64,000 bases of DNA from Vicinamibacteria bacterium (GCA_963668695.2 CAXXLQ010000004.1:544001-608000), one strand, 5' to 3'; counted from the first letter of the stretch, positions 4,799 through 61,300 are shown. Notes: generated by a model not told the origin, from the sequence alone. Program-made: numbers and translations.

Positions 4799-5013
4799 CA
4801 GCCTGTGGTGGAACCCGGGTGAGCGCCGAGAGCGGGGAGGCGCCCGGCTGACAAGGCGCGTGAGGGAGGAATACCGAGTGTATTTCGACCGAAACGCAAC
4901 GCAGAGCGCCGCATAGCGCCAGTTCTCCCGGTGGGGGGGCGGTTCAGGCGGGATGCATCGCCGCTCGAGCCCCCACCGGGAGAACTGGGCCGCCTGGGTT
5001 TCACCACAGGCTG
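4799..5013. mobile_element. MITE family A copy 1 (215 bp, 2 cassettes)
   Basis: TIR CAGCCTGTGGTG...CACCACAGGCTG; CTAG on both sides (4795-4798, 5014-5017). Confidence 0.88.
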
Positions 5014-5033
5014 CTAGAGGACGGACTCGCGAA

Positions 5034-5402
5034 TCATCCGTCCGTTTCTTCCTTCGGGTGGCCACGCAGAGCGACGGTGATGGGTGCGCCTACGCCGAAC
5101 GCCGCGATGGAGATCGCCAGGACCGTGCTTCCCGTCGGGTAGCGTGCCCCGATCGCCGCGCCGAAACCCACAACTGCCAGAACAAAGGCGAGGATCTGCC
5201 CCAGGCGCACCTGGCTGGCGTACGTGCGAGCCGCACGTTCCTCCATCCCATGGCGGTGATCCCGGCGGGCTGCGGCGTCCTTCAGGATTTCTCCCGGGAG
5301 ATTCCCGTCAATTGCTTGGTACGCCTGCATCTCGGAGGCGGAGGGAAGTGGTCCACTGATCTGTACCCGTTGCAGAAACCTGACCGCCGCCCCTTCAACC
5401 AC
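5034..5402 (-). CDS. DUF2335-like membrane protein
   Basis: SGPLP.....Y......I......HR..E followed by two hydrophobic helices; start uncertain. Confidence 0.7.
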   Translation of the reverse strand: MVEGAAVRFLQRVQISGPLPSASEMQAYQAIDGNLPGEILKDAAARRDHRHGMEERAARTYASQVRLGQILAFVLAVVGFGAAIGARYPTGSTVLAISIAAFGVGAPITVALRGHPKEETDG

Positions 5403-5531
5403 TGCCGGATCGAGCGATCCGTCAGCCGATGATGTTGCGGCGAGCGGCGAGTCCTCCGACCCGTTTCCGTTGGGCCGATCTTCAGCTTGGCGTGACGACG
5501 ACTCGGTTGGTTTCGCCGCCGAAAACGTCGT

Positions 5532-5786
5532 TCACTGCGTCGATCTGGAGCGATCGGCTTCCGTCATCGCATCACGCAAATCACCGCCCAACGCAGCCCA
5601 ATCGGCCCACATACCTTCACCCTCGGAAAGCCAGGTTCTCCTTATCCGCGGTCGCGGATCGAACGCGGATGCAAATCCGATAAGGCACGCATTTCCTCTT
5701 GAATGGTGCCGCGGAAGCAGCCTCGCGATCGCCGCCAAAAGAGCGGCTTCCGCCCGGCGCCGAGAGTCATCCCTGACGTCGTCCAT
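5532..5786 (-). CDS. small hypothetical protein upstream of the DUF2335-like gene
   Basis: AGGAAA RBS before ATG; 'DWAALGGDLRDAM' motif often seen upstream of DUF2335 genes. Confidence 0.5.
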   Translation of the reverse strand: MDDVRDDSRRRAEAALLAAIARLLPRHHSRGNACLIGFASAFDPRPRIRRTWLSEGEGMWADWAALGGDLRDAMTEADRSRSTQ

Positions 5787-5902
5787 TTGGTTTCCTGCTA
5801 GCGCTCATCCGGGACTTTCCTGCCTCACAGCAACTTTTCCTTGAGCATCGGCCATTCTACGCTTGAACTGCTAAAGCCAAGCGTGGTGCGGGAATGACGC
5901 GG

Positions 5903-6670
5903 CTATGAAGCCTGTCGGGAGTACACGATCCGGATTCCCTCCAGCGTCAGGCGCTCGTTCACGAGGTCCACGACCCCGGTCCAGTCGGCCACCTGCTGGG
6001 CGAGCCCGCCGGTGGCGATCACCGTGTAGTTCCCGCCGAGTTCTTCCTTTAGCAGCCGGACCATCTCGCGCACCATTCCGGTCCAACCGAGGACGAGCCC
6101 CGACTGCATGGCGGCGACGGTGTGCGTCCCGACGACGCGCTTCGGCGGCCGGAGTTCCACTCGGGGCAGGCGGGCCGTCCGCCGGACCAGTGCTTCGGCG
6201 GAAACTCCGAGTCCGAGCGCGATGGCCCCGCCCCGATATTCCCCCTCCTCGGACACCACATCGAAGGTGAGCGCGGTACCCGCGTCCAGCACGATGGCGG
6301 CGACTCCGTAGAGGTGATGGACGGCCACCGTATTCGCGATCCGGTCCGGGCCGGTCTCCTCGGGGGTGTCCACCGCCAGGCGAATCCCGCGGGCGGTCTT
6401 GTGGTTCAGCACGAAGAGCGGGCTCCCGAAATAACGCTCGGCCAGGGTGCGCAGGACTTCGGTCGCCGAGGGAACCACGCTCGCCGCCGCGAGCCCGCCA
6501 ATGTCCGCCCGCGAAACGCCGGCTCCGGCAAGCAGGCTGTCGAGCAGCGGCGCCATCTCGTCGGCCAGCCGCTCGGCCTGGGTGGAAATCCGCCAGTCGC
6601 AGACCCAGCGTTCGCCGTCGTGGAGGCCGATGGCGGTCTTGGTGTTGCCGACGTCGAAGACGAGGAGCAT
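5903..6670 (-). CDS. coaX: type III pantothenate kinase
   Basis: MLLVFDVGNT, GPDR, DAGTA, GGAI, IATGG motifs; ATG 6670. Confidence 0.93.
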   Translation of the reverse strand: MLLVFDVGNTKTAIGLHDGERWVCDWRISTQAERLADEMAPLLDSLLAGAGVSRADIGGLAAASVVPSATEVLRTLAERYFGSPLFVLNHKTARGIRLAVDTPEETGPDRIANTVAVHHLYGVAAIVLDAGTALTFDVVSEEGEYRGGAIALGLGVSAEALVRRTARLPRVELRPPKRVVGTHTVAAMQSGLVLGWTGMVREMVRLLKEELGGNYTVIATGGLAQQVADWTGVVDLVNERLTLEGIRIVYSRQAS

Positions 6671-6698
6671 GGTTAGTCGCTGAATGCTACGGGAATGG

Positions 6699-7667: not shown

Positions 7668-7757
7668 CGGGTGAGCTTAGTGGGGGGAAGAGCCGGGTTG
7701 AGTGCTGCGTCAGCCCCCCCGCGCTCGCGCGCCAGGAGCCGCTCGCCGGGGCTCTGT

Positions 7758-8891: not shown

Positions 8892-9007
8892 CGCGCCTCC
8901 GGGAGCCGAACAGGAGCCCCAAGCGCGACTAGTGTTGTGTCTCCGAGCCGCACCCGCAACTTCGCGGATCCCCGCGCGAAGCGCGGCGCAGGAAATCAGG
9001 ACCCGGA

Positions 9008-10386: not shown

Positions 10387-10407
10387 CAGCCGGTGGCAGC
10401 ACGGCCA

Positions 10408-14994: not shown

Positions 14995-15046
14995 GGACTC
15001 GTTCCTTTTGTTTGTGCGGAGGGAAGGGCGGAAGTATTGCCTTCAA

Positions 15047-15261
15047 CAGCCTGTGGCAAAACTCACGCGGCGTTCGACGGGCGATGCATCCCGGCTGAAC
15101 TGCCCCGCTTCGCGGTGCTCTGCGTTGCGTTTCGGTCGAAATACACCCGGGCCAGTTCTCCCGGTGGGGGCTCCTCTCTCACGCGCCTTGTCAGCCGGGC
15201 GCCTCGCCCCCACCGGGAGAACTGGCCGTCTCGGCGCTCACGTGAGTTTTGCCACAGGCTG
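15047..15261. mobile_element. MITE family A copy 2 (215 bp), overlapping the 3' end of udk
   Basis: TIR CAGCCTGTGGCAAAACTCACG; flanks TCAA / TTAG. Confidence 0.88.
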
Positions 15262-15847
15262 TTAGGCGCTCCGCGGCGCGGCCCACGCACACATCGCCCC
15301 AATCCATCGGAAAAACGAGGTCGGCGACACCCGCCGCGCCGGCGAGGTAGCGCCGCTGCGCCGGGATCACCATCGTCTCGAACCGGTCGCGCACCTCATC
15401 CGCCGAATAGGAGCGCCCCGCGCCATCCCTCTGGATGCGCCTCGAGAGCAGTTCATCGAGATCTCCCTCCAGCAGAATAGAGAGATCCGCCGCCTCGCGG
15501 ACCCGGGAATCCCAGAGGGCAAAGACCCCCTCCGCGACCACCAGGTTCGTCGGGCCGAGGGATCCGGACACCCGGCGCGCTCCGGTGCCGAAGTCGTAGG
15601 CGAAACGGGGGACGGTCCGACCGGAACGGAGCGTTCCGAGATGTTCGGCGAACAGATCGAGGTCATAGGACTCCGGCTCGTCGTAGTTGACCTTGGTGCG
15701 ATCGCTTCGGGACAGGTGGGAGGTATCCCGGTAGTAGTCGTCCTGGGAGAGCACCACCGGCTCCCAACCGGGAAACCGTTCCGCCAGAGCCCGGGCGAAG
15801 CGGGTCTTGCCGGCACAGGTCCAGCCGGCGATGGCGGCCACCCTCAC
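15191..15847 (-). CDS. udk: uridine kinase family protein (C-terminus supplied by MITE)
   Basis: IAG...AGKT P-loop, SQDDYY, NYDEP.S.D, P..YDF, RRI.RD; start GTG inferred. Confidence 0.8.
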   Translation of the reverse strand: MRVAAIAGWTCAGKTRFARALAERFPGWEPVVLSQDDYYRDTSHLSRSDRTKVNYDEPESYDLDLFAEHLGTLRSGRTVPRFAYDFGTGARRVSGSLGPTNLVVAEGVFALWDSRVREAADLSILLEGDLDELLSRRIQRDGAGRSYSADEVRDRFETMVIPAQRRYLAGAAGVADLVFPMDWGDVCVGRAAERLTACGKTHVSAETASSPGGGEAPG

Positions 15848-15916: not shown

Positions 15917-16150
15917 CAGCCTGTGGTGGAACCCGGGTGAGCGCCGAGAGCGGCCAGTTCTCCCGGTGGGGGCGAGGCCCAGTTCTCCCGGTGGGGGTCC
16001 GGCTGACAAGGCGCGTGAGGGAGGAGCCCCCACCGGGAGAATGGGCCCGGGTGTATTGCGACCGAAACGCAACGCAGAACGGAGCGAAGCGGAGTGGTTC
16101 AGACGGGATGCATCGCCGCTCGAACGCCGCCTGGGTTTCACCACAGGCTG
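15917..16150. mobile_element. MITE family A copy 3 (234 bp, 3 cassettes), supplies the gatB stop
   Basis: TIRs present; flanks CTAA / CTAC. Confidence 0.88.
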
Positions 16151-17689: not shown

Positions 17690-18219
17690 CAGCGGGTGGC
17701 GACAGTCGGCCAGCGTCAACCTGCGGCGCGTAGCGCCGCAGGGGTGGGGTGTGGGGAGGGGTGTCCCCTCCCCACGAAAGACGGTGGCGCGAATCGCGCA
17801 GCGATTCGCGCCACAAGCAGCCTGTAGACAAAGTGACGTGAGCACCGAGAGTGGTGAGGCGCCCCGCTGACAAGGCGCGCGAGGGAGGAGCCCCCACCGG
17901 GAGAACTGGCCCGAGTGTATTTCGACCGAGGCGCAACGATGAGCCACGCGAAGCGGGGCGGCCAGTTCTCCCGGTGGGGGCCAGCCGGGATGTATCGCCG
18001 CTCGCTTCCGGAGCGGGGCGCGAGCACCGCGGAGACCCCGGAGCGAGAGGGACGGGGGACGGGTTCACCCGGCCCCCATCTCTCTTGGCTCGGGAATGCC
18101 GCGTAACTTTGTCCACAGGCTGCTCGCCCGTGGGGAAAGCGCCCCGCCTCCGAAGAACACCCGGGAATGGGTGTGCCTCCCCACGTGGGCGTGATGCGGG
18201 GTGCTTTTTCCACGGGCTG
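17690..18219. repeat. repeat family B copy interrupted by MITE A copy 4
   Basis: shares GGGGTGTGGGGAGGG..CCCTCCCC, GGCGCGAATCGC.CAGCGATTCGCG and GCGGGGTGCTTT..CCACGGGCTG with 57963-58152 and (reverse) 44483-44700. Confidence 0.75.
17818..18122. mobile_element. MITE family A copy 4 (2 cassettes plus an extra ~90 bp insert)
   Basis: ends CAGCCTGTAGACAAAGT...ACTTTGTCCACAGGCTG. Confidence 0.8.
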
Positions 18220-20007: not shown

Positions 20008-20499
20008 GGGTCACCTCCCGGCGCCCATCTTAGTCAACGGCTCCCGCGCGCGCAGCCCCCGCACGCGCAGCCACAGCCCAGGATCGGCCGCGGTACCGGA
20101 GTCCACGGCCGACGGAACATCACGGATCGCCGGTCGGAGGGGGCCGCGCTGCCCGGCCGGGAACGCCGGTGTTCACACCAGGAGCGCTGGGCAGTTCTCC
20201 CGGTGGGGCCCTTCAGACCGGCATCGCGGCCGCAGGCCGCGAAACTCCCATCGCTAACCGCGAAAAAGCGCGGGGACGGCTGGGAGCGCCAGTCTTCAGA
20301 CCTGTGTCGCGGCCCAGGGCCGCGAGAGCCCCTCCGTCGACGTTCATGGGTCAGCCCACCCCTATCGGGCCAGATCGCGCGACCAGAAACTTCCCGGTGT
20401 TCGGCGTCTACGCTTTGCGCCGCGTCGTCGCACCCCGACCACTGGGGCAATGCTGGTCCCCACCGGGAGAACCCTCTCCGCGCAGCGTCATCCCCTCCC

Positions 20500-22224: not shown

Positions 22225-22451
22225 CAGCCGGTGGACAAAGTCGCGTGGCGTTCGGCCGGCGATCCATCCCGGCTGAACCACGCCGCTTCGCGTCGTTCAT
22301 CGTTCCGCTTCGGCCGAAATACAGCCAGGCCAGTTCTCCCGGTGGGGGCTCCTCCCTCGCGCGCCTTGTCAGCCGGGTTGTCAGCCGGGCGCCTCCCCCC
22401 CACCGGGAGAACCGCGGGCCTCGGCGCTCACGTCACGTTGCCCACCGGCTG
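22225..22451. mobile_element. MITE family A copy 5 (227 bp: 2 cassettes plus a 12-bp duplication), between accD and folC
   Basis: TIR CAGCCGGTGG...CCACCGGCTG; flanks TGAA / TTAA. Confidence 0.85.
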
Positions 22452-22471
22452 TTAACAGCCGGATCGGTACC

Positions 22472-25699: not shown

Positions 25700-25714
25700 C
25701 GTACGGAGGGTTAA

Positions 25715-25893
25715 CAGCCTGTGGATAAAGTGACGTGAGCACCGAGGCCGGTGAGGCGCCCGGCTGACAAGGCGCGCGAGGGAGGAATACCGAGTGTATT
25801 TCGACCGATGTGCAACGCAGAGCGTCGCGAAGCGGCGCGGTTCAGCCGGGATGCATCGCCGGTCGAATGCCGCGTGACTTTGTCCACAGGCTG
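25715..25893. mobile_element. MITE family A copy 6, minimal cassette-free form (179 bp)
   Basis: TIR CAGCCTGTGGA.AAAGT.ACG; flanks TTAA / TTAG; no 19-nt cassette. Confidence 0.88.
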
Positions 25894-25908
25894 TTAGCAG
25901 GGCAGCCA

Positions 25909-30240: not shown

Positions 30241-30311
30241 TCTCTTGTTCAAAGAAAGGTAGCGTGCTGACTACGCTCGGGTCTCTCGCGACGGCGTCCG
30301 TCGGCTGGACG

Positions 30312-32072
30312 AACATGTCGCTCTAGCGGAGTCTCCCGACCCGAACATGTCGCTCTAGCGAAGCCGGCCGGAATCAACATGTCGCTCTAACAGGGTCTCC
30401 CGCCCCGAACATGTCGCTCTAGCGAAGCCGGCCGGAATCAACATGTCGCTCTAGCAGGGTCTCCCGACCCGAACATGTCGCTCTAGCGAAGCCGGCCGGA
30501 ATCAACATGTCGCTCTAGCGGGGTCTCCCGCCCCGAACATGTCGCTCTAGCGAAGCCGGCCGGGATCAACATGTCGCTCTAGCGGGTCTCCCGACCCGAA
30601 CATGTCGCTCTAGCGAAGCCGGCCGGAATCAACATGTCGCTCTAGCGGGTCTCCCGCCCCGAACATGTCGCTCTAGCGAAGCCGGCCGGAATCAACATGT
30701 CGCTCTAGCGGGGTCTCCCGCCCCGAACATGTCGCTCTAGCGAAGCCGGCCGGAATCAACATGTCGCTCTAGCGGGTCTCCCGACCCGAACATGTCGCTC
30801 TAGCGAAGCCGGCCGGAATCAACATGTCGCTCTAGCGGGTCTCCCGACCCGAACATGTCGCTCTAGCGAAGCCGGCCGGAATCAACATGTCGCTCTAGCG
30901 GGTCTCCCGACCCGAACATGTCGCTCTAGCGAAGCCGGCCGGAGTCAACATGTCGCTCTAGCGGGTCTCCCGCCCCGAACATGTCGCTCTAGCGAAGCCG
31001 GCCGGAATCAACATGTCGCTCTAGCGGGTCTCCCGACCCGAACATGTCGCTCTAGCGAAGCCGGCCGGAATCAACATGTCGCTCTAGCGGGTCTCCCGCC
31101 CCGAACATGTCGCTCTAGCGAAGCCGGCCGGAATCAACATGTCGCTCTAGCGGGGTCTCCCGACCCGAACATGTCGCTCTAGCGAAGCCGGCCGGAATCA
31201 ACATGTCGCTCTAGCGGGGTCTCCCGCCCCGAACATGTCGCTCTAGCGAAGCCGGCCGGAATCAACATGTCGCTCTAGCGGGTCTCCCGCCCCGAACATG
31301 TCGCTCTAGCGAAGCCGGCCGGAATCAACATGTCGCTCTAGCGGGGTCTCCCGCCCCGAACATGTCGCTCTAGCGAAGCCGGCCGGAATCAACATGTCGC
31401 TCTAGCAGGGTCTCCCGCCCCGAACATGTCGCTCTAGCGAAGCCGGCCGGAATCAACATGTCGCTCTAGCGGGGTCTCCCGCCCCGAACATGTCGCTCTA
31501 GCGAAGCCGGCCGGAAGGGTCGCTCTAGCAGGGTCTCCCCCGTCGCTCGCCTCTGGAACGCTTAACATGTCGCTCTAGCGAAGCCGGCCGGAATCAACAT
31601 GTCGCTCTAGCGGGGTCTCCCGCCCCGAACATGTCGCTCTAGCGAAGCCGGCCGGAATCAACATGTCGCTCTAGCCGGGGTCTCCCGCCCCGAACATGTC
31701 GCTCTAGCGAAGCCGGCCGGAATCAACATGTCGCGAACTAGCGAAGCCGGCGGGGGTCTCCCGCCCCGAACATGTCGCTCTAGCGAAGCCGGCCGGAATC
31801 AACATGTCGCTCTAGCGGGTCTCCCGGTCCGAACATGTCGCTCTAGCGAAGCCGGCCGGAATCAACATGTCGCACTAGCGGGGTCTCCCGGTCCGAACAT
31901 GTCGCTCTAGCGAAGCCGGCCGGAATCAACATGTCGCTCTAGCGGGTCTCCCGGCCGAACATGTCGCTCTAAGCGAAGTCGCTCTAGCAGAAACATGTCG
32001 CTCTAGCGAAGGTCTCCCGGCCGGAATCAACATGTCGCACTAGCGGGGTCTCCCGGCGGGGAACATGTCGCA
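30312..32072. repeat. non-coding tandem array: core AACATGTCGCTCTAGC alternating with two fixed spacers, period ~63-64 bp, about 27 units
   Basis: read directly; spacers (G/A)GGGTCTCCCG(A/C)CCCG and GAAGCCGGCCGGAATC; irregular at ~31515-31565, ~31735 and after ~31960. Confidence 0.97.
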
Positions 32073-32273
32073 TTGGGGAAGCGCTCTCGCCCGCATCCGG
32101 CGGGCGGTGCCGGCGTGAATGCCCCCACCGGGAGGACTGGCCGGCGTTCCCAATTCGGCCTTCCCGATTCGGCGGCGCGATCGGGGTGAGGACCGTGGGC
32201 CCGCAGACCCCTTTTGGTCACCAACTGCCCGGAGGTCGGCGGTTCCCTCGCTTCGGTAGAGTCCCTGAACGCC

Positions 32274-34851: not shown

Positions 34852-35049
34852 CAGCCTGTGGCAAAACCCACGCGGCGTTCGACCGGCGATCCATCCCGGC
34901 TGAGCCACTCCGCTTCGCTGTGTTCTGCGTTGCGTTTCGGTCGAAATACACCCGGTATTCCTCCCTCACGCGCCTTGTCAGCCGGGCGCCTCGCCCCCAC
35001 CGGGAGAACTGGCCAACCTCGGCGCTCACGTGGGTTTCACCACAGGCTG
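34852..35049. mobile_element. MITE family A copy 7 (198 bp, 1 cassette) inside abiEii
   Basis: TIRs present; flanks TCAA / TTAA; net 202-nt insertion shifts the frame. Confidence 0.92.
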
Positions 35050-35734
35050 TTAAGGGCGGGACCTGCCTCAAGAAGTGCTATCTCAGCGACCATCGGTTTT
35101 CCCAGGATCTCGACTTCACCGTCCGGAAGGGTGGTCCCGTCGGGCCTGCAGCGGTGCTCCCGATACTGCGGCCGCTGCTGCAGCGGGTGAGCGATGCCTC
35201 CGGACTCGACTTCGCCGTCGCCGAACCCCGGTTGGACCTCCACCGGGGAAGGAACTTCGCCCGGGGCCGCATCTACTACACCGGTCCGCGCCGTGCCCGC
35301 ATGCCGACCCGGCTCATTCTGGATCTCAGCGGCGAGGAACTCCTCGCCGTGGAGCCGGAATGGAGAACTGTGCTCCATGACTACGGAGAAAAGCTTCCCC
35401 CGCCGGCGACGGTGCTGTGCTATCCGCTGGTTGAAGTATTCGCGGAGAAGATCCGCGCAATGGGAGAGCGGGGACGCCCGCGGGATCTCTACGACCTCGT
35501 CAGCGTGTTCCTCAGACCGGAGGTTCGGCCAGATCCGGCGGAGGTCCGACCGGTGCTGGCGCGGAAGTGCGCGCACAAAGGGATTCCGGTTCCGGACCTC
35601 GAATCCGTCCGCGCTGCAGAGACGCTGGCCGAGCTCAAGTCCGAGTGGAGGCACATGCTGGACCGACAGATGGCCGTGGTCCCCTCGCTCGACGACACGT
35701 GGGGCGAACTCCCGGCCTTCTTCCGCTGGCTCAA

Positions 35735-35988
35735 CAGCCTGTGATGAAACCCACGCGGCCCAGTTCTCCCGGTGGGGGCTCGAGCGGCGATGCATCCCGC
35801 CTGAACCGCCCCCCCACCGGGAGAACTGGCGCTTTGCGGCGCTCTGCGTTGCGTTTCGGTCGAAATACACCCGGGCCAGTTCTCCCGGTGGGGGCTCCTC
35901 CCTCACGCGCCTTGTCAGCCGGGCGCCTCGCCCCCACCGGGAGAACTGGCCAACCTCTCGGCGCTCACCCGGGTTCCACCACCGGCTG
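35735..35988. mobile_element. MITE family A copy 8 (254 bp, 4 cassettes) in the 3' end of abiEii
   Basis: TIRs present; flanks TCAA / TTAA. Confidence 0.9.
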
Positions 35989-36056
35989 TTAAGCCGGAGA
36001 AGTGTTGACACCCGCCCGGCATCGGCGCCGGGCTCGCGAAGGGGGCCGCTCCGACC

Positions 36057-41254: not shown

Positions 41255-41982
41255 TCGAGGCCTCCGGTCTCAAGAAGACCTTCGGCAGCGTGGTGGCCGT
41301 CAAGGACGTGAGCTTTCGCGCCGAGGACGGACAGATCACGGGCCTCGTCGGCCCGAATGGGGCCGGAAAATCCACCACCCTGCGGATGCTCTACGGCCTG
41401 ATGGCGCCGGAGGCGGGCAACGTCGCCGTGGATGGAGTGGACGTCCAACGGGAAACGATGGCGGCGCAGGAGCGCATCGGGGCCCTTCCGGACTCGCACT
41501 CCCTGTACCCACGGCTGACCGGCCGCGAGAACATCCGCTACTTCGCGCAGCTTCGCCGTCTTCCGCGAGACGAAGCCGAGGCCCGGATCGCGGAGTTCGT
41601 CCGGCTGCTGGAGATGGACGACTTCGTGGACCGGCGGGCAAAGGGCTATTCGCACGGAGAGCGCTCCCGGGTGCTCCTCGCCCGGGCGCTGGTCCACGAG
41701 CCCCAAAACGTCCTCCTCGACGAGCCGACAAACGGGCTGGACGTGATGAGCACCCGGCGCATGCGGGACCTGATCCGCGAGCTGCGGGCGCGGGGCTGCG
41801 CGGTGCTCTTTTCGAGCCACATCATGCAGGAGGTTTCCCTCCTCTGCGACCAGATCGTGATCATCGCGGCCGGGCGGGTGGTCGCCTCGGGGTCCCCCGA
41901 CGCGATCCGCGACGCGGCGGGGTGTGAGGACCTCGAGGATGCCTTCGTCAGCCTCACCGGTCCCCAGGAAGCGAGGGCCTAG
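41251..41982 (+). CDS. ABC transporter ATP-binding protein (NatA-like)
   Basis: GPNGAGKST, LLDEPTNGLD, FSSH. Confidence 0.92.
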   Translation: MIEASGLKKTFGSVVAVKDVSFRAEDGQITGLVGPNGAGKSTTLRMLYGLMAPEAGNVAVDGVDVQRETMAAQERIGALPDSHSLYPRLTGRENIRYFAQLRRLPRDEAEARIAEFVRLLEMDDFVDRRAKGYSHGERSRVLLARALVHEPQNVLLDEPTNGLDVMSTRRMRDLIRELRARGCAVLFSSHIMQEVSLLCDQIVIIAAGRVVASGSPDAIRDAAGCEDLEDAFVSLTGPQEARA

Positions 41983-42233
41983 CAGCCGGTGCTGAAACCC
42001 AGGCGGCCCAGTTCTCCCGGTGGGGGCTCGAGCGGCGATCCATCCCGGCTGAACCACTCCGCTTCGCTCCGTTCTGCGTTGCGTTTCGGTCGAAATACAC
42101 TCGGGCCAGTTCTCCCGGTGGGGGCTCCTTCCTCACGCGCCTTGTCAGCCGGGCCCCCACCGGGAGAACTGGCCCCACCGGGAGAACTGGGCCTCACCGC
42201 TCTCGGCGCTCACCCGGGTTCCACCACAGGCTA
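41983..42233. mobile_element. MITE family A copy 9 (251 bp, 4 cassettes) between ATPase stop and permease start
   Basis: flanks CTAG (contains the stop) and CTAA (overlaps the ATG). Confidence 0.88.
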
Positions 42234-42236
42234 CTA

Positions 42237-43400
42237 ATGCGAGGCGCCGCCACCGTCTTCCGGAAGGAGCTCGTCGACGGGATCCGCGACCGGCGGGCCT
42301 TCATTGCGGTCCTGGTTTCGATCAGCATCTTCCCGATCATGATGCTGTTGATCGGCCGCTTCGGCGAGGGAATCCGCGACGAGGTGCGGAACATGGAAGT
42401 GCCGGTGGAAGGCCGGGAAAACGCTCCCGCGCTCGTCGAATGGCTCGAACGGCAGCCGGGTCTCGAACTGACCCCGGCCCCCGAGGACCCGGAGTCCGCG
42501 GTGCAGGAACACGAGGTGGATCTGGTGCTTCGGATCCCGGCGGACTACGAGGAGCGGTTCGCAGAGGGACGGCCGGCAGAAGTGGAACTGGTCGCCGACA
42601 GTTCGCGGGCGGCGGCAGGGGCGAAGGCGCGCCGCGTCACGGGGCTGCTCGAGGGTTACGCGAACGAGGTCGCCGCCCTGCGCCTCATCAGCCGGGGGGT
42701 GAGCCCGCTGCTCATCCGCCCGCTTGCCGTCGAGCGCGCGGAGGTCTTCAGTTCCCGGCGGCGGACGGCCTTTTCCACTCTCGGCTTCATCCCGATGTTC
42801 CTCCTGATGAACGCCTTCTTCGGCGGCATGCAGATCGCCTCGGACGCCATTGCCGGCGAACGCGAGCGGGGGTCGATCGAGGCGCTGCTGCTGAACGCGG
42901 TTCCGGGGCGCCTTCTCATTCTCGGGAAGTGGGCGGCGGCGGCGACCTTCGCCGTCTTCCTGACGCTCCTCGGCCTCGGCACCTGCGTGGTGGTGCTGCG
43001 GTTCATGCCGGGCGCGCTGAACATCTCGCCGAGCGCCGGTGACTGGGCGCTCGTGGGGCTTGCCGCCCTCCCGCTTGCGCTCTTCTGCTCGGCGCTGCAG
43101 GTGGTGGTCTCGACCTACGCGAAGTCCTACAAGGAGGCGCAGACCTATTTCGGCTACGTGGCCTTCCTCCCGATGATCCCCTTCTTCGCGGTCACCTTCA
43201 ATTTGGTGGAGCAGGGGACCTGGACGGCCTTCATCCCGATTCTCGGCCAGCATCTGATGATCCTGAACGTGATCGCCGGCGAAACGATCGCGACCTGGGA
43301 ACTGGCGCTGGCCGGATTCATCGCCCTCGCCGCCGCCTGGGCGCTCCTGCGGTTCGCCTCATCCCTCTTCGTCCGCGAGAGCGTCGTCTTCGTCCGCTGA
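42237..43400 (+). CDS. ABC-2 permease (NatB-like)
   Basis: VFRKEL.D..RDRR, D.IAGERERGS.E.LL, AKSYKEAQTY. Confidence 0.9.
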   Translation: MRGAATVFRKELVDGIRDRRAFIAVLVSISIFPIMMLLIGRFGEGIRDEVRNMEVPVEGRENAPALVEWLERQPGLELTPAPEDPESAVQEHEVDLVLRIPADYEERFAEGRPAEVELVADSSRAAAGAKARRVTGLLEGYANEVAALRLISRGVSPLLIRPLAVERAEVFSSRRRTAFSTLGFIPMFLLMNAFFGGMQIASDAIAGERERGSIEALLLNAVPGRLLILGKWAAAATFAVFLTLLGLGTCVVVLRFMPGALNISPSAGDWALVGLAALPLALFCSALQVVVSTYAKSYKEAQTYFGYVAFLPMIPFFAVTFNLVEQGTWTAFIPILGQHLMILNVIAGETIATWELALAGFIALAAAWALLRFASSLFVRESVVFVR

Positions 43401-44045: not shown

Positions 44046-44478
44046 CAACCTGTGGTGGAACCCGGGTGAGCGCCGAGGCTGGCCAGTCTCCCGGTGGGGG
44101 CGAGGCGCCCGGCTGACAAGGCGCGTGAGGGAGGAGCCCCCACCGGGAGAACTGGCCCGGGTGTATTTCGACCGAAACGCAACGCAGAACGGAGCGAAGC
44201 GGAGTGGTCAACAGCCGGTGGTGGAACCCGCGTGAGCGCCGAGGTCAGTGAGGCGCCCGGCTGACAAGGCGCGTGAGGGAGGAATACCTGGTGTATTTCG
44301 ACCGAAACGCAACGATGAGCGGCGCGCAGCGACGCGGTCAGCCGGGATGAATCGCCGGCCGAGCCCCCACCGGGAGAACTGGGCCGCGTGGGTTTCATCA
44401 CCGGCTGTTTGGCCGGGATGGATCGCCGGCCGAGCCCCCACCGGGAGAACTGGGCCGCCTGGGTTTCACCACAGGCTG
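44046..44478. mobile_element. MITE family A copy 10 containing nested copy 11 (44212-44407)
   Basis: outer flanks CTAG / CTAA; inner copy has its own TIR CAGCCGGTG...CACCGGCTG and splits GGAGTGGT|GCCGGGATG. Confidence 0.85.
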
Positions 44479-44482
44479 CTAA

Positions 44483-44700
44483 CCCGAGGGGAGAGCACCC
44501 CGCACGCTTCCGCGGACAACACACGTGCCAAATCTGGCGGTTTGTGCGCGTGCGGGGCGCTTTCCCCTCGGGGTGATGGCGCGAATCGCTCCGCGATCCG
44601 CGCCATCGTCTTTCGCGGGGAGGGGAAACCCCTCCCCGCACCCCTCCCGCGCGGCGCTCGGCGCCGCGGACTGCTGCCGCCAAACCTCCGCCACCAACTG
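44483..44700. repeat. repeat family B copy (reverse orientation)
   Basis: reverse-complement match to 57963-58152. Confidence 0.72.
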
Positions 44701-49859: not shown

Positions 49860-49995
49860 CAGCCTGTGGTGGAACCCGGGTGAGCGCCGAGAGCGGCCAG
49901 TTCTCCCGGTGGGGGCGAGGCGCCCGGCTGACAAGGCGCGTGAGGGAGGAGCCCCCACCGGGAGAACTGGGCCGCGTGGGTTTCACCACAGGCTG
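49860..49995. mobile_element. MITE family A copy 12, internally deleted (136 bp)
   Basis: TIRs intact; flanks CTAA / TTAA; the segment between two same-orientation cassette sites is missing. Confidence 0.85.
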
Positions 49996-50136
49996 TTAAG
50001 AGCGCCTGGAGCGCCGGCTTCGGCCGGCAACCGAACCGTCCGCGGAGCGACGGTGGAACTCGCGGACGCAATGACGCTCGGTGGCACGACGGCTTTGTCT
50101 ACCCGAGGTTGGAGCGCCGCATCCACCGGGTGCGGA

Positions 50137-54602: not shown

Positions 54603-54609
54603 CTGGCCA

Positions 54610-54848
54610 GAGAACCCCGGCCAGTGCTGCCGGTGGGGGCCTTCACACCAGCCACGGCGGCGCGAAGGCTGGGAACGCTGGTTCACACCGGCATCGCGCG
54701 GGAGCGCGAAACTGGCGCCGATGACTCTGCGCCCTGTCTGCGCCCTGTTAGCGCCCGGTTAGCGTGAGTGCCGCACCACCTTTTTCATTGCGGGCGGGGT
54801 ATGCCAGCGGACCCGATCATGAGGGTTTCGCCCGCTGGAGGCCGGCAC
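54610..54848. repeat. repeat family C copy (reverse of 61104-61300)
   Basis: shared blocks GAAACCCTCATGATCGG, ATGAAAAAGG, GTTTCGCGCTCCCGCGCGATG, GCCGGTGTGAAC..GCGTTCCC. Confidence 0.7.
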
Positions 54849-55646: not shown

Positions 55647-55665
55647 GACTAGCCGAACACTAGTC
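55647..55665 (-). promoter_or_regulatory. putative Phd operator
   Basis: GACTAG-N7-CTAGTC palindrome upstream of the antitoxin. Confidence 0.5.
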
Positions 55666-55787
55666 TGAACCTCAGCGCGTCAATACCGTATGACGGCGGG
55701 TGACGTGTCGTGCCCGCCGCCGAGATCGCGCGCCGCCCCCGCGAGCGCCATCAGTGCCCGGTGGTCCGCCGGAGGGCGCAGGCGGCG

Positions 55788-56482: not shown

Positions 56483-56507
56483 GCTCGTTGACGACCCGTT
56501 TGCGCCC

Positions 56508-57944: not shown

Positions 57945-57962
57945 TCTCGTAGGGGCTGTCAG

Positions 57963-58152
57963 CAGCCTGCGGCGCGAAGCGCCGGGGAAGGGGTGTGGGG
58001 AGGGGTTCCCCTCCCCGCGAAAAAAGGTGGCGCGAATCGCGCAGCGATTCGCGACATCACCCGGGAGAAAAGTGTCCCGCGCTCGGAACCCCGGCCGGAT
58101 TCGGCACCCTTATGCGCCTGCGAACGGCGCGGGGTGCTTTTCCCACGGGCTG
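57963..58152. repeat. repeat family B copy
   Basis: CAGCCTGCGG...CCACGGGCTG, abuts the TAA stop of the amidohydrolase. Confidence 0.75.
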
Positions 58153-59343
58153 TTATCTGCGGAAGACGACGGCGCCGTCCACCAGGACCACCGCGGTCTT
58201 GGCGTAGGTGCCGATGGGATGCGAATCCCAGATAACGACATCGGCATCAAGGCCAGGGGCGAGGCTCCCGATCCGGTCGTCCACCCCCAGGATCGCCGCC
58301 GCGTCGGACGTGACCGCGGTGAGCGCCGCTTCCCGGGGAAGCCCGTGCGCCCAGGCGACGATCGCTTCCATCGCGACCGAACGGCCTCGGGAGCCGAAGG
58401 TGGAGAGCGCGATCTTCACGCCGGCGGCATGGAGAATGCCCGCCGTCGCGGGCGTGTGGCCCTTGAGTTCCATCGGGCCTCCGTCTCCGATCCCGATGAC
58501 CGAAGGACCGACCACCACCGGAATCCCCGCCTCGGCAAGCCGGGCCGCCACCGTGGAGGCGCCGGCCGCCTGATCGAGGACCAGGCGCAGATCGAACTCC
58601 CCGGCTACCCGGAGCGCCGTCTCGATGTCGTCGGGCTTGTTGGCGAGCATCCGGAGCGGGATTTCTCTGGAGAGCAGCCGGCCCAGCGTCCGCCCGGCTT
58701 CTCCTTCAAAGGCGTCCTCTCCCGCCCGGATCAAGGTGTTCCGGAGGTCGAAGATCATGCCCTGCCGCGTGGTGCGCCCGCGCGGCGCCTCGCGGCCCGG
58801 CGGCGAGTCCCCTACCGCCGATTCGCCGAAAGAGGCCGCTACCGCCACCTCCTCGGCCAGGAGGGCGGTCTCCGCGGGCCCGGAGAGCTTCACGACCGCC
58901 CCCGTGCCGCCGATCAGGAGCCGCGGATCGGGCGCCAGATACACCGCCGTGACGCCGGATTGGAGCCACAGGGGAGCCAGGTTCTCAGCGAAGCGATCCG
59001 CGGCGCGCACCTCGGGTGCGATCGCTGCGTCGGGATCGCCGCCCAGGCTGACGAGCCCCCCGCCCTCTCCCGGAGAAGTGCCGAGAAGCGTCTGGGCGTC
59101 AATGAAACCGGGAGTGACGACCATCCCCTCGGCCGAGATCACGTCGGCGCCCTCGGGAAGCTCGATTCCCGGGCCGATGGCGGTGATCTTCCCGTCCTCG
59201 ATGAGGACTGTCGCGCCCGCCAGGACCTCGCCGGCTCCGGTGTGGACTTCGCCGCCGACGATCGCTATCGGCTGCGCGGCGGCGAGCACCGGCAGTCCCA
59301 GCGCGAGCGCCGCGGGAACCAGGCGGCGGAACGGACCTGGCAT
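58153..59343 (-). CDS. amidohydrolase-family protein lacking metal-binding HxH
   Basis: TPGFIDAQT, GSL.PG.DAD.VIW. Confidence 0.85.
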   Translation of the reverse strand: MPGPFRRLVPAALALGLPVLAAAQPIAIVGGEVHTGAGEVLAGATVLIEDGKITAIGPGIELPEGADVISAEGMVVTPGFIDAQTLLGTSPGEGGGLVSLGGDPDAAIAPEVRAADRFAENLAPLWLQSGVTAVYLAPDPRLLIGGTGAVVKLSGPAETALLAEEVAVAASFGESAVGDSPPGREAPRGRTTRQGMIFDLRNTLIRAGEDAFEGEAGRTLGRLLSREIPLRMLANKPDDIETALRVAGEFDLRLVLDQAAGASTVAARLAEAGIPVVVGPSVIGIGDGGPMELKGHTPATAGILHAAGVKIALSTFGSRGRSVAMEAIVAWAHGLPREAALTAVTSDAAAILGVDDRIGSLAPGLDADVVIWDSHPIGTYAKTAVVLVDGAVVFRR

Positions 59344-60608
59344 TACCAACCCTCCGGCACCACGTTGCCGAAGACGTTGTACCCCGTCTCGCGGTTGAAG
59401 ACCTCAACCCCATCCACGAAGACCCGCATCACCAGGCTCTCGTAGGCCAGCGGGTCCGCGCCGCCGAGGATGGCGATGTCGGCGTCCATGCCGACTTCCA
59501 GGCTGCCGATCCTGTCTTCCAGGTGAAAGATGCGGGCGCCGTTCAGCGTGAGGGCCTTGAGTGCCTCTTCCGGCGGCATGCCCTGTCGCACGAACATCGC
59601 GCCGGTGTGGCGCAGCCAGTAGGGGTGGCCGTCCGGAGGATCCTGATGGAAGGCGACCAGCCCGCCGAGTTCCACGAGCCGCACCGGACCGAGGAGATCC
59701 TCGCTCTCGCGGCTGTCACCCGGCAAGATGGGGCCGTAACTCACCGGCATCCCGAGTTCGTGGAGTTCCTCCGCGAGCGCCAGGGTCGCCCCGCCGTGAT
59801 GGATGTAGGCATCGAGGTCGAACCGGCGCTTGATTTCCATGGCGTGGCGCATTTGCTGCTCGCTGCTCGAATGGATGCCGAGGACCCACTCGCGGGTCAG
59901 TAGCCGGCCGAGCGCCTCCCGCGTGAGGTTCCGGGGCGGCCTGGCCTGCTCGGGATCCGCCTCGTGCGCGGCGATGGCGTCGAGGTACTCCTGGGCGGCC
60001 TCCAGTTCGCCGCTCAGCAGATCGAAGACCTCCTGCTCGTTCTCGGGGAAGTTCGGATACGGCGTCGTTGCCCGGATGGCGAACTTGATCCCGCCGGGGG
60101 CGAGGAACATGTCCTCCACCGTCCCGCCGCGCATCTTCACGAGCGCCGACTGGCCGCTGTTGGGGCTCCGGCTGCCGGTGGTGATGTTCTGGGTGGTGAT
60201 GCCCGAGGCGACCGCCAGGGCGAACGCGGGATCTCCGGAGTCCAGCCCGTCGATCGCCCGCACGTGGGCATTGATCGGACTCGACAGTTCGTTGTTGTTG
60301 GATCCCGTCGCCGGCAGGTTGAGCACCTTGAAGCCGGTGTGGGAATGCGTCTCGATGATCCCCGGGATGACGCTCATTCCGGTGGCGTCCACCACCTCTG
60401 CGCCCGCCGGAACCGACACCTCGGCCCCCACCGCTTCGATCTTCCCGTCCCGGATCAGCACCGTGCCTCCCGGGATCGGCTCGGAACTCACCGGGTACAC
60501 GAGCCCTCCGGTAATGGCGATGACCCCCTCCCCAGAAGATCCCGGCCCACAGGCGAACGCAGCAAGCGCCGCCCCCAACGCAATACCGAGGACCGATCTA
60601 CCCTTCAT
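59343..60608 (-). CDS. amidohydrolase-family lipoprotein
   Basis: lipobox AFAC, PGIIETHSH, GSLEVG.DADI. Confidence 0.87.
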   Translation of the reverse strand: MKGRSVLGIALGAALAAFACGPGSSGEGVIAITGGLVYPVSSEPIPGGTVLIRDGKIEAVGAEVSVPAGAEVVDATGMSVIPGIIETHSHTGFKVLNLPATGSNNNELSSPINAHVRAIDGLDSGDPAFALAVASGITTQNITTGSRSPNSGQSALVKMRGGTVEDMFLAPGGIKFAIRATTPYPNFPENEQEVFDLLSGELEAAQEYLDAIAAHEADPEQARPPRNLTREALGRLLTREWVLGIHSSSEQQMRHAMEIKRRFDLDAYIHHGGATLALAEELHELGMPVSYGPILPGDSRESEDLLGPVRLVELGGLVAFHQDPPDGHPYWLRHTGAMFVRQGMPPEEALKALTLNGARIFHLEDRIGSLEVGMDADIAILGGADPLAYESLVMRVFVDGVEVFNRETGYNVFGNVVPEGW

Positions 60609-60884
60609 GGTTCCGATTCGCCACTCTATCAGGGACTGGGAACGCCGGCCCTCAGAGGGGCGTTGCCCCAGGGAGCTGGGCAAGAACCGCACCCTACCGA
60701 CCCGTGTGCAGAGCGCGCAACCGTGGGACCGCCACCCCATGGCAGTTGCGGATCAGTCGCTGGAATCGTTGCAAATGTGCTGCTGGAATCGTTGCAAAAC
60801 CGCTGTTGGCCCGAAAGTTCCTCCGCGAGGGACGACCGGCTGAGCGACAGCACGGTTTCGTTCGCCTCCGGCGGACAGTGCTAG

Positions 60885-61099
60885 CAGCCTGTGGTGAAAC
60901 CCAGGCGGCGTTCGGCCGGCGATCCATCCCGGCTGAACCGCGTCGCTTCGCGCCGCTCATCGTTGCGTTTCGGTCGAAATACACCCGGGCCAGTTCTCCC
61001 GGTGGGGGCTCCTCCCTCACGCGCCTTGTCAGCCGGACCCCCACCGGGAGAACTGGGCCTCGCCGGCCTCGGCGCTCACCCGGGTTCCACTACAGACTG
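60885..61099. mobile_element. MITE family A copy 13 (215 bp, 2 cassettes)
   Basis: left TIR intact after CTAG; right TIR degenerate (CTACAGACTG) followed by CCAG. Confidence 0.82.
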
Positions 61100-61103
61100 C
61101 CAG

Positions 61104-61300
61104 GCCCCACCGGGAGAAACCCTCATGATCGGATCCTCCTGCACACCCTCGCCCGTCATGAAAAAGGCGCAGCCCTCACCCTGGCAAGGCGCAACGTCAT
61201 CAGCGCTGGTTTCGCGCTCCCGCGCGATGTGCCGGTGTGAACACCGGCGTTCCCGTGCGGACGGCGCCATCTGGCTGGGTGGGAGGGCGCTCCCGGCCCG
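61104..61300. repeat. repeat family C copy
   Basis: reverse match to 54610-54848; partial copies at ~20160-20250 and 32108-32151. Confidence 0.7.

Follow-up and report, generated by a model that had tools for sequence, protein, structure and literature searches.

Very small mobile repeated elements, SDR1–8, have been described in Nostocaceae cyanobacteria (Elhai et al. 2008, Genome Res 18:1484). They are reportedly tiny fixed oligomers that are dispersed in high copy number, precisely nested in other repeats or minitransposons, sometimes tandem or nested, and present in filled and empty versions of one host, and they are not known to have an assigned enzyme. A 19-nt cassette, CCCCCACCGGGAGAACTGG, from a sponge-associated member of the Vicinamibacteria (Acidobacteriota) shares all these properties, including the lack of an assigned enzyme, and by analogy the SDRs appear to be its closest precedent. 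As in the SDR type, which comprises oligomers of about 20–27 nt, a highly repeated and dispersed unit is inserted precisely into repeats that have empty counterparts. The cassette, with 1,613 copies, measures 19–20 nt and is slightly shorter than the SDRs, which are reportedly 21–27 nt long. It also differs in replacing 0–3 nt of its host and in belonging to a bacterium of another phylum. SDR4–6 are said to share a hairpin backed by compensatory changes, whereas the cassette has no hairpin of its own.

REP and REPIN elements are mobilised by RAYT proteins (Bertels and Rainey 2011), and are described there, in terms that also fit the cassette, as short and very abundant extragenic motifs that often form hairpins as inverted pairs (PMC3116915). 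The likeness extends to the clade studied here, which has a RAYT with a cognate REP, REP-B, that hosts the cassette. However, the cassette is non-palindromic, whereas a REP is an imperfect palindrome of 20–40 nt and the host REP-B a palindrome of 18 nt. It is not itself the REP but an insert within REPs and MITEs, the genomes richest in it lack RAYT, and the REP-B copies flanking RAYT in congeners are free of it. Empty copies, too, contain the stretch that separates paired cassettes, so a pair is not a REPIN unit. The BIMEs of Escherichia coli are mosaics of palindromic units and short linker motifs that alternate regularly between REPs. They resemble the cassette-bearing repeats in being modular and combinatorial assemblies of a few fixed short motifs in extragenic repeats, but the latter use a single motif, which switches between presence and absence independently at each of several set positions within a transposon-like scaffold and whose state changes from strain to strain. 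Quasi-palindrome template switching gives complex replacements in hairpins, with inverted copies on the opposite arm. It cannot account for one oligomer recurring at sites and in repeats that are unrelated, and complementary cassette pairs co-occur no more strongly than same-strand pairs.

The cassette and its host repeats

The window, the 64,000-nucleotide stretch of DNA that was analysed, contains thirty matches to the cassette at up to two mismatches (24 exact, two with one mismatch and four with two), close to the 33 or so counted by hand in the initial annotation. Dinucleotide shuffles of the window gave 0.01 matches on average, and none of 100 reached thirty. The whole 4.1-Mb source genome (G000) contains 1,613 matches, 1,123 of them exact, with 797 on the plus and 816 on the minus strand, a count inflated by roughly 100 copies because ~265 kb of the assembly is duplicated. 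The commonest 14-mers of the genome are parts of the cassette. The 19-nt core is mostly preceded by G, giving a 20-mer. The cassette is not self-complementary, as had been noticed from the outset, and the 20-mer folds no better than shuffled sequences (z of 0.45 and −0.10). Its orientation has no replichore bias (fraction on the plus strand 0.51 versus 0.48). Neither terminal inverted repeats (TIRs) nor a target-site duplication was found on the cassette, and 0–3 nt are replaced where it enters, so it does not qualify as a MITE in the sense of a non-autonomous DDE transposon.

Nearly all copies reside in two hosts, a 177-nt MITE (MITE A), which unlike the cassette has TIRs and TAG/TAA-type flanks, and REP-B. 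The cassette borders are exact in at least twelve contexts in G000 and in further contexts in other genera; the same 19-mer ends recur at five main and at least four rare sites of MITE A, at two or more positions of REP-B and in other hosts. Statistics for MITE A draw on subsets of 361, 269 or 171 copies with clean boundaries, from a total of roughly 550–650. The main sites, in scaffold coordinates, are 35−, 42−, 73+, 119−, and 153+, each with a fixed orientation, and the rare ones are 32/33+, 109−, 125− and 137+. Among 269 copies, 29 of the 32 possible presence/absence combinations of the main sites were seen, which bears out the original impression of about six positions used in both orientations and varied combinations. 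Sites 119− and 153+ occupy roughly mirrored positions of a local hairpin.

The cassette usually enters by exchange of 1–3 nt (overall range 0–3) for G or another base plus the 19-mer, which lengthens the host by 18 or 19 nt net without a target duplication, as in GGAG+cassette+CCC versus GGAATACC. The alternative description of the insert as a 16-mer with a duplicated GCC did not hold up, since the GCC duplication is not consistent. Entry may often take place at the few A/T-containing positions of the GC-rich repeats. In REP-B, whose palindrome has a single A:T pair in its lower stem, the cassette substitutes one partner of that pair and can do so on either strand.

The lengths of 406 TIR-delimited MITE A elements peak at 177 (70 elements), 195/196 (54), 213/214 (45), 231/232 (46), 249/250 (25) and 267/268 nt (12), in steps of 18 nt. 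Removal of the 18-mer returns 259 of 361 elements to 176–178 nt, so the ladder of lengths tracking cassette number, first seen in a handful of copies, is general. Tandem cassettes occur at site 42 only, with a period of 18, up to five copies and two-to-one changes between haplotypes, and include the pair that the initial annotation had singled out in the window. Head-to-tail copy-number variation does not fit the other sites of MITE A.

Cassettes are much more uniform than their hosts. Per-site diversity is 0.011–0.022 for the cassette, a value somewhat truncated by calling at up to three mismatches, whereas the scaffold reaches 0.139, about ten times as much, and the outer TIR 0.068. No variation was seen among the 42 cassettes at site 119, and 90 of the 96 at site 153 are alike, in both cases with two flanking nucleotides per side counted in. 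The GGAGGAC variant is present in 34 of 212 cassettes at the adjacent sites 35 and 42 and in one of 242 at sites 73, 119 and 153, and this confinement favours local inheritance over a single master template. No template locus was found. Flanks of low copy number border only 22 of the 1,631 copies, which are almost all situated in short REP-B units.

Individual copies in the window

The cassette numbers first read from the MITE A copies starting at 25715 (none), 34852 (one), 4799, 15047 and 60885 (two), 15917 (three), and 41983 and 35735 (four) were all recovered, whereas the supposed one-cassette copy at 44212 belongs to a composite element. The cassette itself keeps out of ordinary coding sequence, as had been stated, but one of its host MITEs does not, because it breaks up a frame that three relatives have intact.

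Table 1. Cassette-bearing repeats and related features of the window, with the state of orthologous loci in relatives.
Feature	Position	Strand	Cassettes	Remarks
MITE A	4796..5018 (ends within ~5 nt)	+	2: 4919–4937 (−, site 119), 4970–4988 (+, site 153)	inverted pair gives hairpin of −32.9 kcal/mol, z −5.55
MITE A	15044..15272	−	2: 15152–15170 (−), 15207–15225 (+)	G008: same copy and cassettes; G004: no MITE; G001: 7-nt remnant only
MITE A	15917..16150	+	3: 15954–15972 (−), 15979–15997 (−), 16027–16045 (+, 2 mismatches)	no MITE in G001, G008, G004
MITE A	17819..18121	+	17891–17909 (+), 17962–17980 (−)	additional, separate 90-nt insert nested at scaffold position 149
Cassette-like 19-mer, 2 mismatches	20191..20209	−
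MITE A	22226..22459	−	22330–22348 (−), 22397–22415 (+, 2 mismatches)	one cassette in G004, none in G008
MITE A, 177-nt scaffold	25713..25897	+	0	reference for site numbering; G008 and G004: MITE of other subfamily in opposite orientation
Cassette (1 mismatch) in REP-B-type palindrome, outside MITE A	32122..32140	+
MITE A	34852..35057	−	1: 34994–35012 (+)	splits frame unbroken in G001, G008, G004
MITE A	35735..35996	−	4: 35760 (−), 35811 (+), 35876 (−), 35931 (+)	G008: deletion between two direct cassette copies; G004: different cassette set and 53-nt module duplication
MITE A	41983..42237	−	4: 42008 (−), 42106 (−), tandem pair 42154–42190 (+, period 18)	G001: four cassette sites differ, flanks 99% identical; metagenome contig joins 41982 to 42238 (MITE-free allele)
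Composite of partial and full MITE A, duplicated 53-nt end module	44047..44486	+	44137, 44364, 44435 (+)	decayed cassette with 1-nt deletion near 44085; G004: plain 177-nt MITE without cassette
MITE A fragment	49860..50003	.	inverted pair 49897–49915 (−), 49952–49970 (+)
Cassette-like 19-mer, 2 mismatches	54621..54639	−		may be chance match or decayed copy
MITE A	60885..61100	−	2: 60990–61008 (−), 61038–61056 (+)	no MITE in G001

Cassette state, flanking haplotypes and scaffold tree

Individual sites have repeatedly become filled or empty, on differing flank haplotypes. Fitch reconstruction on the tree of cassette-stripped scaffolds counted 43, 41, 20 and 46 changes, compared with shuffled-label means of 45.1, 46.8, 25.5 and 48.6. 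The five cassette sites need 0.78–0.95 of the shuffled-label changes, so that their state is almost random on the tree, whereas the ratio is 0.29–0.67 for 13 of 14 SNP columns left out as controls on the same tree. The r2 between cassette and SNP is 0.04 at 1–3 nt (n=8) and 0.015 at 4–6 nt (n=6), in bins that are small, compared with 0.27 and 0.20 between SNPs at the same distances. Flank haplotypes are shared proportionately by filled and empty copies, the main three at site 42 having 22/48, 14/32 and 8/14.

The cassette also differs between otherwise nearly identical sequences. Internal duplicates of G000, which are 99.3% identical (0.67% diverged), disagree on the presence of the cassette at eight of about 107 cassette positions. 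Several of these differences are the sole change within hundreds of nucleotides, and one is accompanied by at least four linked changes, as in a conversion. Orthologs of G000 and its relative G001 with 99% identical flanks differ at four cassette sites, and further loci differ likewise; single cassettes can distinguish orthologous MITEs as they do the haplotypes. The initial annotation had argued that neither a single ancestral insertion nor slippage could account for the cassettes, and the randomness on the tree, the lack of linkage to SNPs 1–6 nt away and the differences between orthologs bear this out.

If the ancestral MITE had contained every cassette, the ladder could reflect losses only, and deletions between direct cassette copies as well as a microhomology deletion within a cassette were indeed seen. 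This explanation is very improbable and is already contradicted by the empty alleles, which hold ATA, AC, AT or TC, letters that cannot be derived by deletion from the filled allele. MITE A is nearly devoid of cassettes in genomes G010 and G032, the diversity of the cassette is far below that of the scaffold, and the cassette also resides in REP-B and occupies different sites in other genera.

Origin and spread of the cassette

The 18-mer, at up to one mismatch, is present in 22 of 61 related genomes, all from one family and belonging to five genera whose coding DNA is only ~72% identical, and it occupies different sites in other genera. Matches to a MITE marker and cassettes number 106 and 15 in the congener G010, 53 and 1 in G032, and 651 and 1,566 in G000. 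Because G010 and G032 hold MITE A with few cassettes, the cassette is best read as a secondary invader of the repeat. Public assemblies produced by several projects contain the exact 19-mer in at least 95 stretches, short-read contigs contain its letters, and the stretch is present in 14 runs from seven studies. There is next to no chance that the cassette is a sequencing adapter or an assembly artefact: nothing specific speaks for this apart from the redundant part of the assembly, and the independent assemblies, the relatives and the short-read contigs contradict it, as does the constant location of the motif at defined positions inside repeats.

The initial annotation proposed that an HUH/RAYT-type or reverse-transcriptase activity writes the oligomer. 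Neither a Y1_Tnp/RAYT nor a reverse transcriptase was found in G000. The family model, and likewise the G001 protein used as a query with E values of up to 1, detected no RAYT in G000 or in G004 (776 cassettes), G018 (259), G031 (70) and G037. However, 13 of 15 congeners have a RAYT, which passes NCBIfam NF047646 (94.6 bits, cut-off 80) and is bordered by REP-B palindromes, including arrays of six and eleven in G010. An HUH tyrosine transposase tied to REP-B might cut hairpin DNA and write the cassette by strand transfer, with G000 and G004 having recently lost the gene and retained relics, and the replacement of one member of the A:T pair in REP-B would be in keeping with this. We consider such an origin unlikely. 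Cassette load does not follow the presence of RAYT, as G010 and G012 have the gene and only 15 and 8 cassettes, whereas G000, G004 and G018 are cassette-rich without it. The RAYT loci that were read, 4.3–5 kb each, contain no cassettes; near-identical duplicates in the RAYT-free G000 assembly still vary in cassette state; and the cassette lacks palindromy, a GTAG or CGTC tag and replichore bias.

A more serious alternative, which we regard as possible but not probable, requires no dedicated activity. A few rare illegitimate events of template switching or quasi-palindrome correction would have made the filled alleles, and ectopic gene conversion between the hundreds of MITE and REP copies would have spread them, with large-loop heteroduplex repair moving only the loop of 18–20 nt while flanking mismatches are restored, and with biased repair or selection for the motif maintaining uniformity. 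Every host is a multi-copy repeat, so the copies could serve as templates for each other, and both states of each site are canonical, replaced letters included, as expected of copying from another repeat copy. The confinement of the GGAGGAC variant to sites 35 and 42, the haplotype difference with linked SNPs, and the variation among near-identical duplicates in a genome without RAYT or reverse transcriptase point in the same direction. The G001 genome itself contains possible donors for the sites newly occupied in its ortholog, with site 109 seen four times among 64 sampled cassettes. On the other hand, cassette state shows no linkage to SNPs 1–6 nt away, although SNPs at such distances are linked among themselves; homoplasy on the tree is far greater at cassette sites than at SNPs; and the cassette is about ten times less diverse than the scaffold. 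The scaffolds diverge by ~14%, a level expected to suppress homologous exchange. Conversion requires shared flanks, and therefore leaves unexplained the identical cassettes at unrelated sites and at other sites in other genera.

The explanation that we prefer, to which we give about an even chance, is that a putative trans-acting activity has inserted the cassette, as a discrete module, into hairpin repeats again and again and with precision, and that conversion, slippage and deletion have reshuffled it afterwards. In this view, the cassette would have invaded secondarily the hairpin-forming repeats found in one family of sponge-associated Vicinamibacteria. The primary step may be precise, sequence-specific placement by an activity able to recognise the cassette or to synthesise it on a fixed template, with hairpin or single-stranded DNA of the GC-rich repeats as the probable substrate; this activity is presumably not a reverse transcriptase or RAYT encoded in G000. 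Against this explanation, the searches yielded neither an enzyme nor a template locus. Four secondary processes were observed: the number of tandem copies changes with a period of 18, stretches between direct cassette copies are deleted, an occasional conversion carries linked SNPs along, and cassettes decay through microhomology deletion. Together with primary placement, they may produce the 18-nt ladder and the near-random combinations of sites. The interpretation of the initial annotation is thus partly supported: the recurrence and the exact ends agree with repeated writing of a fixed oligomer, but some of the pattern comes from tandem change, deletion and at least one conversion-like event. 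With about 1,600 copies, exact placement within hairpin repeats and differences between near-identical strains, the cassette ranks among the smallest DNA units that seem to be mobile or copied independently.

Cassette copies and their host repeats

The 19-mer cassette CCCCCACCGGGAGAACTGG has 30 matches in the window with at most two mismatches, of which 24 are exact, whereas the shuffled mean is 0.01. The window corresponds to C4:544001–608000 in the assembly of the source genome (G000; 4.10 Mb, four contigs, 67% G+C). This assembly contains 1,613 matches to the 19-mer, 1,123 of them exact, and the strands carry 797 (+) and 816 (−), counts inflated by about 100 cassettes because part of the assembly is present twice. 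The commonest 14-mers of the genome are those within the cassette, with approximately 1,350 copies each, and the best-conserved 14-mer of MITE A, the main host of the cassette, has approximately 550. Two repeat families house nearly all copies. About 1,400 of the 1,631 matches to the 18-nt core (18-mer) are located in five MITE contexts, and variants of the palindromic repeat REP-B account for most of the 210 found elsewhere. A unique master or template locus was not seen: just 22 of the 1,631 copies have low-copy flanks, nearly all of them in short REP-B contexts. The window has no Rfam match at the gathering score. A tRNA or tmRNA origin of the cassette was rejected, the nearest of 58 ARAGORN genes having four mismatches in a doubtful 98-nt call.

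The MITE A scaffold is 177 nt long, with the ends TAG-CAGCCTGTGG...CCACAGGCTG-CTA, and forms a long hairpin with compensatory covariation, for example between columns 33/147, 16/162, and 62/95. The initial annotation described a ladder of MITE A lengths that tracks cassette number. Strict pairing of TIRs delimited 406 elements, and these reproduced the ladder, with peaks at 177, 195/196, 213/214, 231/232, 249/250, and 267/268 nt. The statistics presented here rest on cleanly delimited subsets of the approximately 550–650 MITE A copies (361, 269, or 171), and stripping of the 18-mer core shrinks 259 of the 361 to 176–178 nt. The cassette numbers claimed for the named MITE copies were confirmed in the window, and so was the tandem pair at 42154–42190, which has a period of 18. 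Cassette sites were numbered by mapping MITE A copies onto a cassette-free copy. As initially proposed, the cassette occupies several scaffold positions in both orientations and in different combinations: there are five main sites, the orientation is fixed at each, 29 of 32 presence/absence sets were seen among 269 copies, and the sites are nearly independent of one another.

Cassette sites in MITE A (scaffold coordinates) and REP-B, with letters replaced, net length change, and Fitch changes of cassette state
Site	Strand	Copies filled	Letters replaced	Net change (nt)	Fitch changes	Shuffled mean
35	−	81/269	none or one letter	+19	6	7.0
42	−	82/269, often tandem	GC	+18	43	45.1
73	+	104/269	ATA, by G + 19-mer + C	+18	41	46.8
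119	−	45/269	GC	+18	20	25.5
153	+	96/269	AC	+18	46	48.6
32/33	+	rare				
109	−	rare	TC	+18		
125	−	rare				
137	+	rare	AT	+18		
REP-B			one letter: A13 or, on the other strand, its partner T6	+19		

The REP-B palindrome is 18 nt long (GCCGGTCTGAAGACCGGC or GCCGGTGTGAACACCGGC), and in a third variant of this host the cassette lies directly 3′ of GCCGG. About 35 MITE A copies carry one or two extra units of the 53-nt 3′ end module. Another nested element, approximately 90 nt long (GCTTCCGGAGCGGGGCGC...CTTCTGGCTCGG), is inserted at scaffold position 149 in the copy at window 17819–18121 and in about ten others.

The cassette is not palindromic, as had been noted, and has no hairpin of its own, with z values of 0.45 and −0.10 for the lone fold. 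An inverted pair of cassettes, such as that at sites 119 and 153, forms a strong hairpin (z −5.55), and 264 of 457 cassettes are paired with another cassette in predicted single-strand folds. Selection for complementary pairs was rejected, since the odds ratios of opposite-strand pairs (1.2–3.2) do not exceed the value of 5.3 for 73/153, a pair on the same strand.

Junctions, uniformity, and independence from the flanks

The comparison of filled and empty alleles showed that target duplication is absent from the cassette junctions and that, as observed initially, the cassette replaces nucleotides at some sites, the number replaced being 0–3. Except at site 73, a net gain of 18 nt reflects the substitution of one base (mostly G) and the 19-mer for two letters. 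The empty alleles hold letters that cannot be derived by deletion from the filled ones. Therefore, descent from an ancestor with all cassettes through simple losses is contradicted.

Diversity per site is 0.011–0.022 in the cassette, 0.139 in the MITE A scaffold, and 0.068 in the outer TIR. All 42 cassettes compared at site 119 are identical, as are 90 of 96 at site 153. The GGAGGAC variant of the cassette was found in 34 of 212 copies at the adjacent sites 35 and 42, but in one of 242 elsewhere in the MITE sites compared. Fitch counts of cassette state were obtained on a maximum-likelihood tree inferred from 171 scaffolds after stripping of the cassettes and masking of the junction columns, and the significance of their comparison with the shuffled means is overstated because MITE copies are related. 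As a control, the tree was rebuilt for each of 14 SNP columns, and each time the tested column was masked along with the adjacent columns and the one it pairs with; 13 of these columns required 0.29–0.67 of the shuffled changes, and the remaining one 0.86. In small distance bins, the r2 between cassette and SNP is 0.04 at 1–3 nt (n=8) and 0.015 at 4–6 nt (n=6), whereas that between SNPs is 0.27 and 0.20, respectively. Flank haplotypes of 6+6 nt are common to filled and empty copies, in proportion. Since cassette state is almost unlinked to adjoining polymorphisms, the same site has changed state, by gain or loss, often and on varied backgrounds, and the tract ends at the junction.

The exact ends of the cassette, its many sites, its uniformity, its independence from the flanks, and its conservation across genera fit best a reading in which we place about as much confidence as doubt: the cassette may be a discrete module. 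A precise, sequence-specific activity, which we infer, would place the cassette, and ordinary recombination would subsequently shuffle and wear down the placed copies. The main rival explanation is short-patch ectopic conversion, in which just the 18–20-nt heteroduplex loop would be transferred. Conversion is consistent with the canonical alleles formed by the filled and empty states and with the fact that the GGAGGAC variant is confined to sites 35 and 42, although we consider it unlikely overall.

Variation among orthologs, strain haplotypes, and related genomes

The window is collinear with the related genomes G001, G004, and G008. The MITE at 41983–42237 is common to G001, where its flanks are 99% identical, and four cassette sites differ between the two copies. 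The same locus carries a deletion between two direct cassette copies in G008 and is MITE-free in five more distant congeners. Other orthologous MITE loci display one, two, or four cassette differences and few point differences, and one orthologous locus contains a plain 177-nt copy in G004 versus a four-cassette composite in G000.

Several additional rearrangements were observed at these loci. At window 41960–42190, G004 retains a 45-nt MITE tail, left by a deletion that runs from AGCCTCACCGG, located 3′-terminally in the upstream gene, to a similar sequence in the MITE; this tail is now fused to the gene and supplies its end. The MITE A copy at 34852–35057 adds 202 nt and splits a frame (...WVFKGGTCLKKCY...) that is unbroken in G001, G008, and G004. 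At 25713–25897, a TAA-type target holds one MITE A subfamily in G000, G008 and G004 carry a different subfamily there in reverse orientation, and the site is empty in G001; the explanation is either independent insertion at a hot spot or replacement of one MITE by the other. A long tandem array at 30300–32100 consists of units of about 32 nt (64-nt double period) that begin with AACATGTCGCTCTAGCGG and continue with a variable part, of which two versions alternate. G000 and G001 differ in the length of the array, which by its look is not a CRISPR array.

Approximately 265 kb of the G000 assembly is present twice at 98.4–99.7% identity: contig C1 corresponds to C4:304–421 kb and C3 to C4:3.505–3.538 Mb, and at the two ends of C4, 13–148 kb corresponds to 3.783–3.914 Mb. 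The duplicated regions are probably co-assembled strain haplotypes, which agrees with the 9.3% contamination figure, and they provide strain-level comparisons. The duplicates have 1,770 mismatches in 265,395 aligned nt (0.67%) and share 99 of the 102 cassettes of the first members, with three cassettes first-only and five second-only. Loci that differ just by the cassette, which the initial annotation had proposed to look for, do exist: at sites 42 and 73, the duplicates are distinguished by four clean swaps between canonical alleles, one of which is the sole change in 468 nt. One swap carries at least four linked changes and resembles conversion, and this haplotype event speaks for that explanation. 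Two further differences are tandem changes from two copies to one, and another is a 15-nt microhomology deletion within the cassette. The public runs containing the window are sponge metagenomes; when searched for cassette polymorphism, their contigs, broken at repeats, yielded just an allele that lacks the MITE and, at the ends of contigs, letters of the cassette.

The motif is present in Vicinamibacteria and 'Candidatus Marinacidobacterium' MAGs. With at most one mismatch, the 18-mer occurs in 22 of the 61 related genomes surveyed. These 22 represent five genera of one family, and the 33 genomes of other families all lack it. A control pattern gave 0–1 matches in the same survey. The reading of the cassette as an artefact is contradicted. 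Cassettes and MITE-A marker hits, respectively, number 1,566 and 651 in G000, 776 and 442 in G004, 747 and 310 in G001, 692 and 402 in G008, 259 and 23 in G018, 15 and 106 in G010, 1 and 53 in G032, and 0 and 2 in G017; across the 28 genomes of the family, cassette load runs from 0 to 1,566. The lone cassette of G032 sits in a MITE. Because MITE A occurs almost without cassettes in some congeners, the cassette arrived later. Other genera carry the same core elsewhere in hosts that resemble MITE A and REP-B but have diverged from them. Conversion provides a poor account of cassettes that are identical at unrelated sites and across genera. A second form of the cassette, CCCCTACCGGGAGAACCGG, which combines C5>T with T17>C, is present in MITEs of G037 (loci L122 and L146) and has four exact matches in G000, including at C4:631528, 806989, and 1633236. 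Literature searches on Marinacidobacterium, on repeats and MITEs of Vicinamibacteria, and on papers citing the small dispersed repeats of cyanobacteria yielded no prior description of the cassette.

Candidate machinery and significance

The initial annotation suggested RAYT-type strand transfer or reverse-transcriptase-templated insertion as the writing activity. Neither suggestion was borne out in this form: Y1_Tnp/RAYT and RVT_1 were not found in G000 (marker completeness 91.7%). Reverse transcriptase was detected in four of 28 genomes of the family, but not in G000, G004, G008, or G018. RAYT is encoded by 13 of 15 congeners, and the protein from G001 scores 94.6 bits against NCBIfam NF047646 (cut-off 80). 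The RAYT genes of G001, G008, and G010 (loci L160, L161, and L162) are flanked by REP-B palindromes, and REP-B is thus the cognate REP of the congener RAYT. The G010 locus contains REP-B arrays of six (period about 85) and eleven (period 80) units. None of the three loci contains a cassette. Neither the family model nor the G001 protein (E up to 1) found RAYT in the cassette-bearing genomes G000, G004, G018, G031, and G037. An origin of the cassette from RAYT is historically possible, but we regard it as highly improbable, since it is at odds with the distribution of RAYT and cassettes among genomes: the five genomes just named have cassettes without RAYT, and G010 and G012 have RAYT and few cassettes. 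REP-B is present in the RAYT-free genomes G000 and G004. Replication-strand bias, as expected of IS200/IS605-like single-strand insertion, was ruled out by + fractions of 0.51 and 0.48 in the two replichores.

The search for IS ends carrying the motif, also proposed initially, led to MITE arrays, tandem arrays, or repetitive ORFs as the multi-copy segments of at least 500 nt; a scan for TIR pairs at two mismatches was too noisy for use. The single IS110-family element of G000 (C4:482,100–483,880; L167:600–2380) is located within a REP-B variant, the halves of which (...CCGGAGGTC and CGGCGTTCC) border it, and not at a cassette site. Targeting of REPs by IS110/IS1111 elements is known. TnpB had no match above the cut-off in G000, and the other enzyme families detected there, with seven DDE_Tnp_1 matches and one Cas1, could not be tied to the cassette.

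A system that uses neither reverse transcriptase nor RAYT might write a fixed 19–20-nt oligomer at defined points of hairpin repeats, and might have done so hundreds of independent times in this lineage, replacing 0–3 nt and producing no target duplication. We put this forward tentatively, as a possibility that we doubt more than we believe. If it is true, the system would be a bacterial 'oligonucleotide writer' and the cassette the smallest mobile unit with exact ends.

The cassette is neither a REP/REPIN nor a MITE and is probably not a plain tandem repeat, as adjacent copies that vary in number are confined to site 42; it belongs to a kind that is known but unexplained. Its nearest precedent is the small dispersed repeats (SDRs) of Nostocaceae (Elhai et al. 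2008), which are reported to be likewise tiny fixed oligomers nested precisely within other repeats; SDR5 reportedly inserts exactly in HIP1. The cassette differs from the SDRs in its phylum and probably in its sequence, in the lack of its own hairpin, and in its replace-and-insert junctions. How units too small for transposase binding sites spread has been a question since the description of the cyanobacterial SDRs. The cassette offers a richer test bed, with approximately 1,600 copies, a handful of defined sites, and clean filled and empty alleles, and the closed congener genomes extend from those whose MITEs lack cassettes up to a ratio of about 2.4 cassettes to each MITE marker hit. Together with the strain differences within the assembly, these properties make the mechanism approachable by comparative genomics and long-read population data. 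The cassettes break short-read assemblies of these sponge symbionts. Within hundreds of intergenic elements, they form direct and inverted repeats of 19 bp and thereby give rise to deletions and strong hairpins beside genes.
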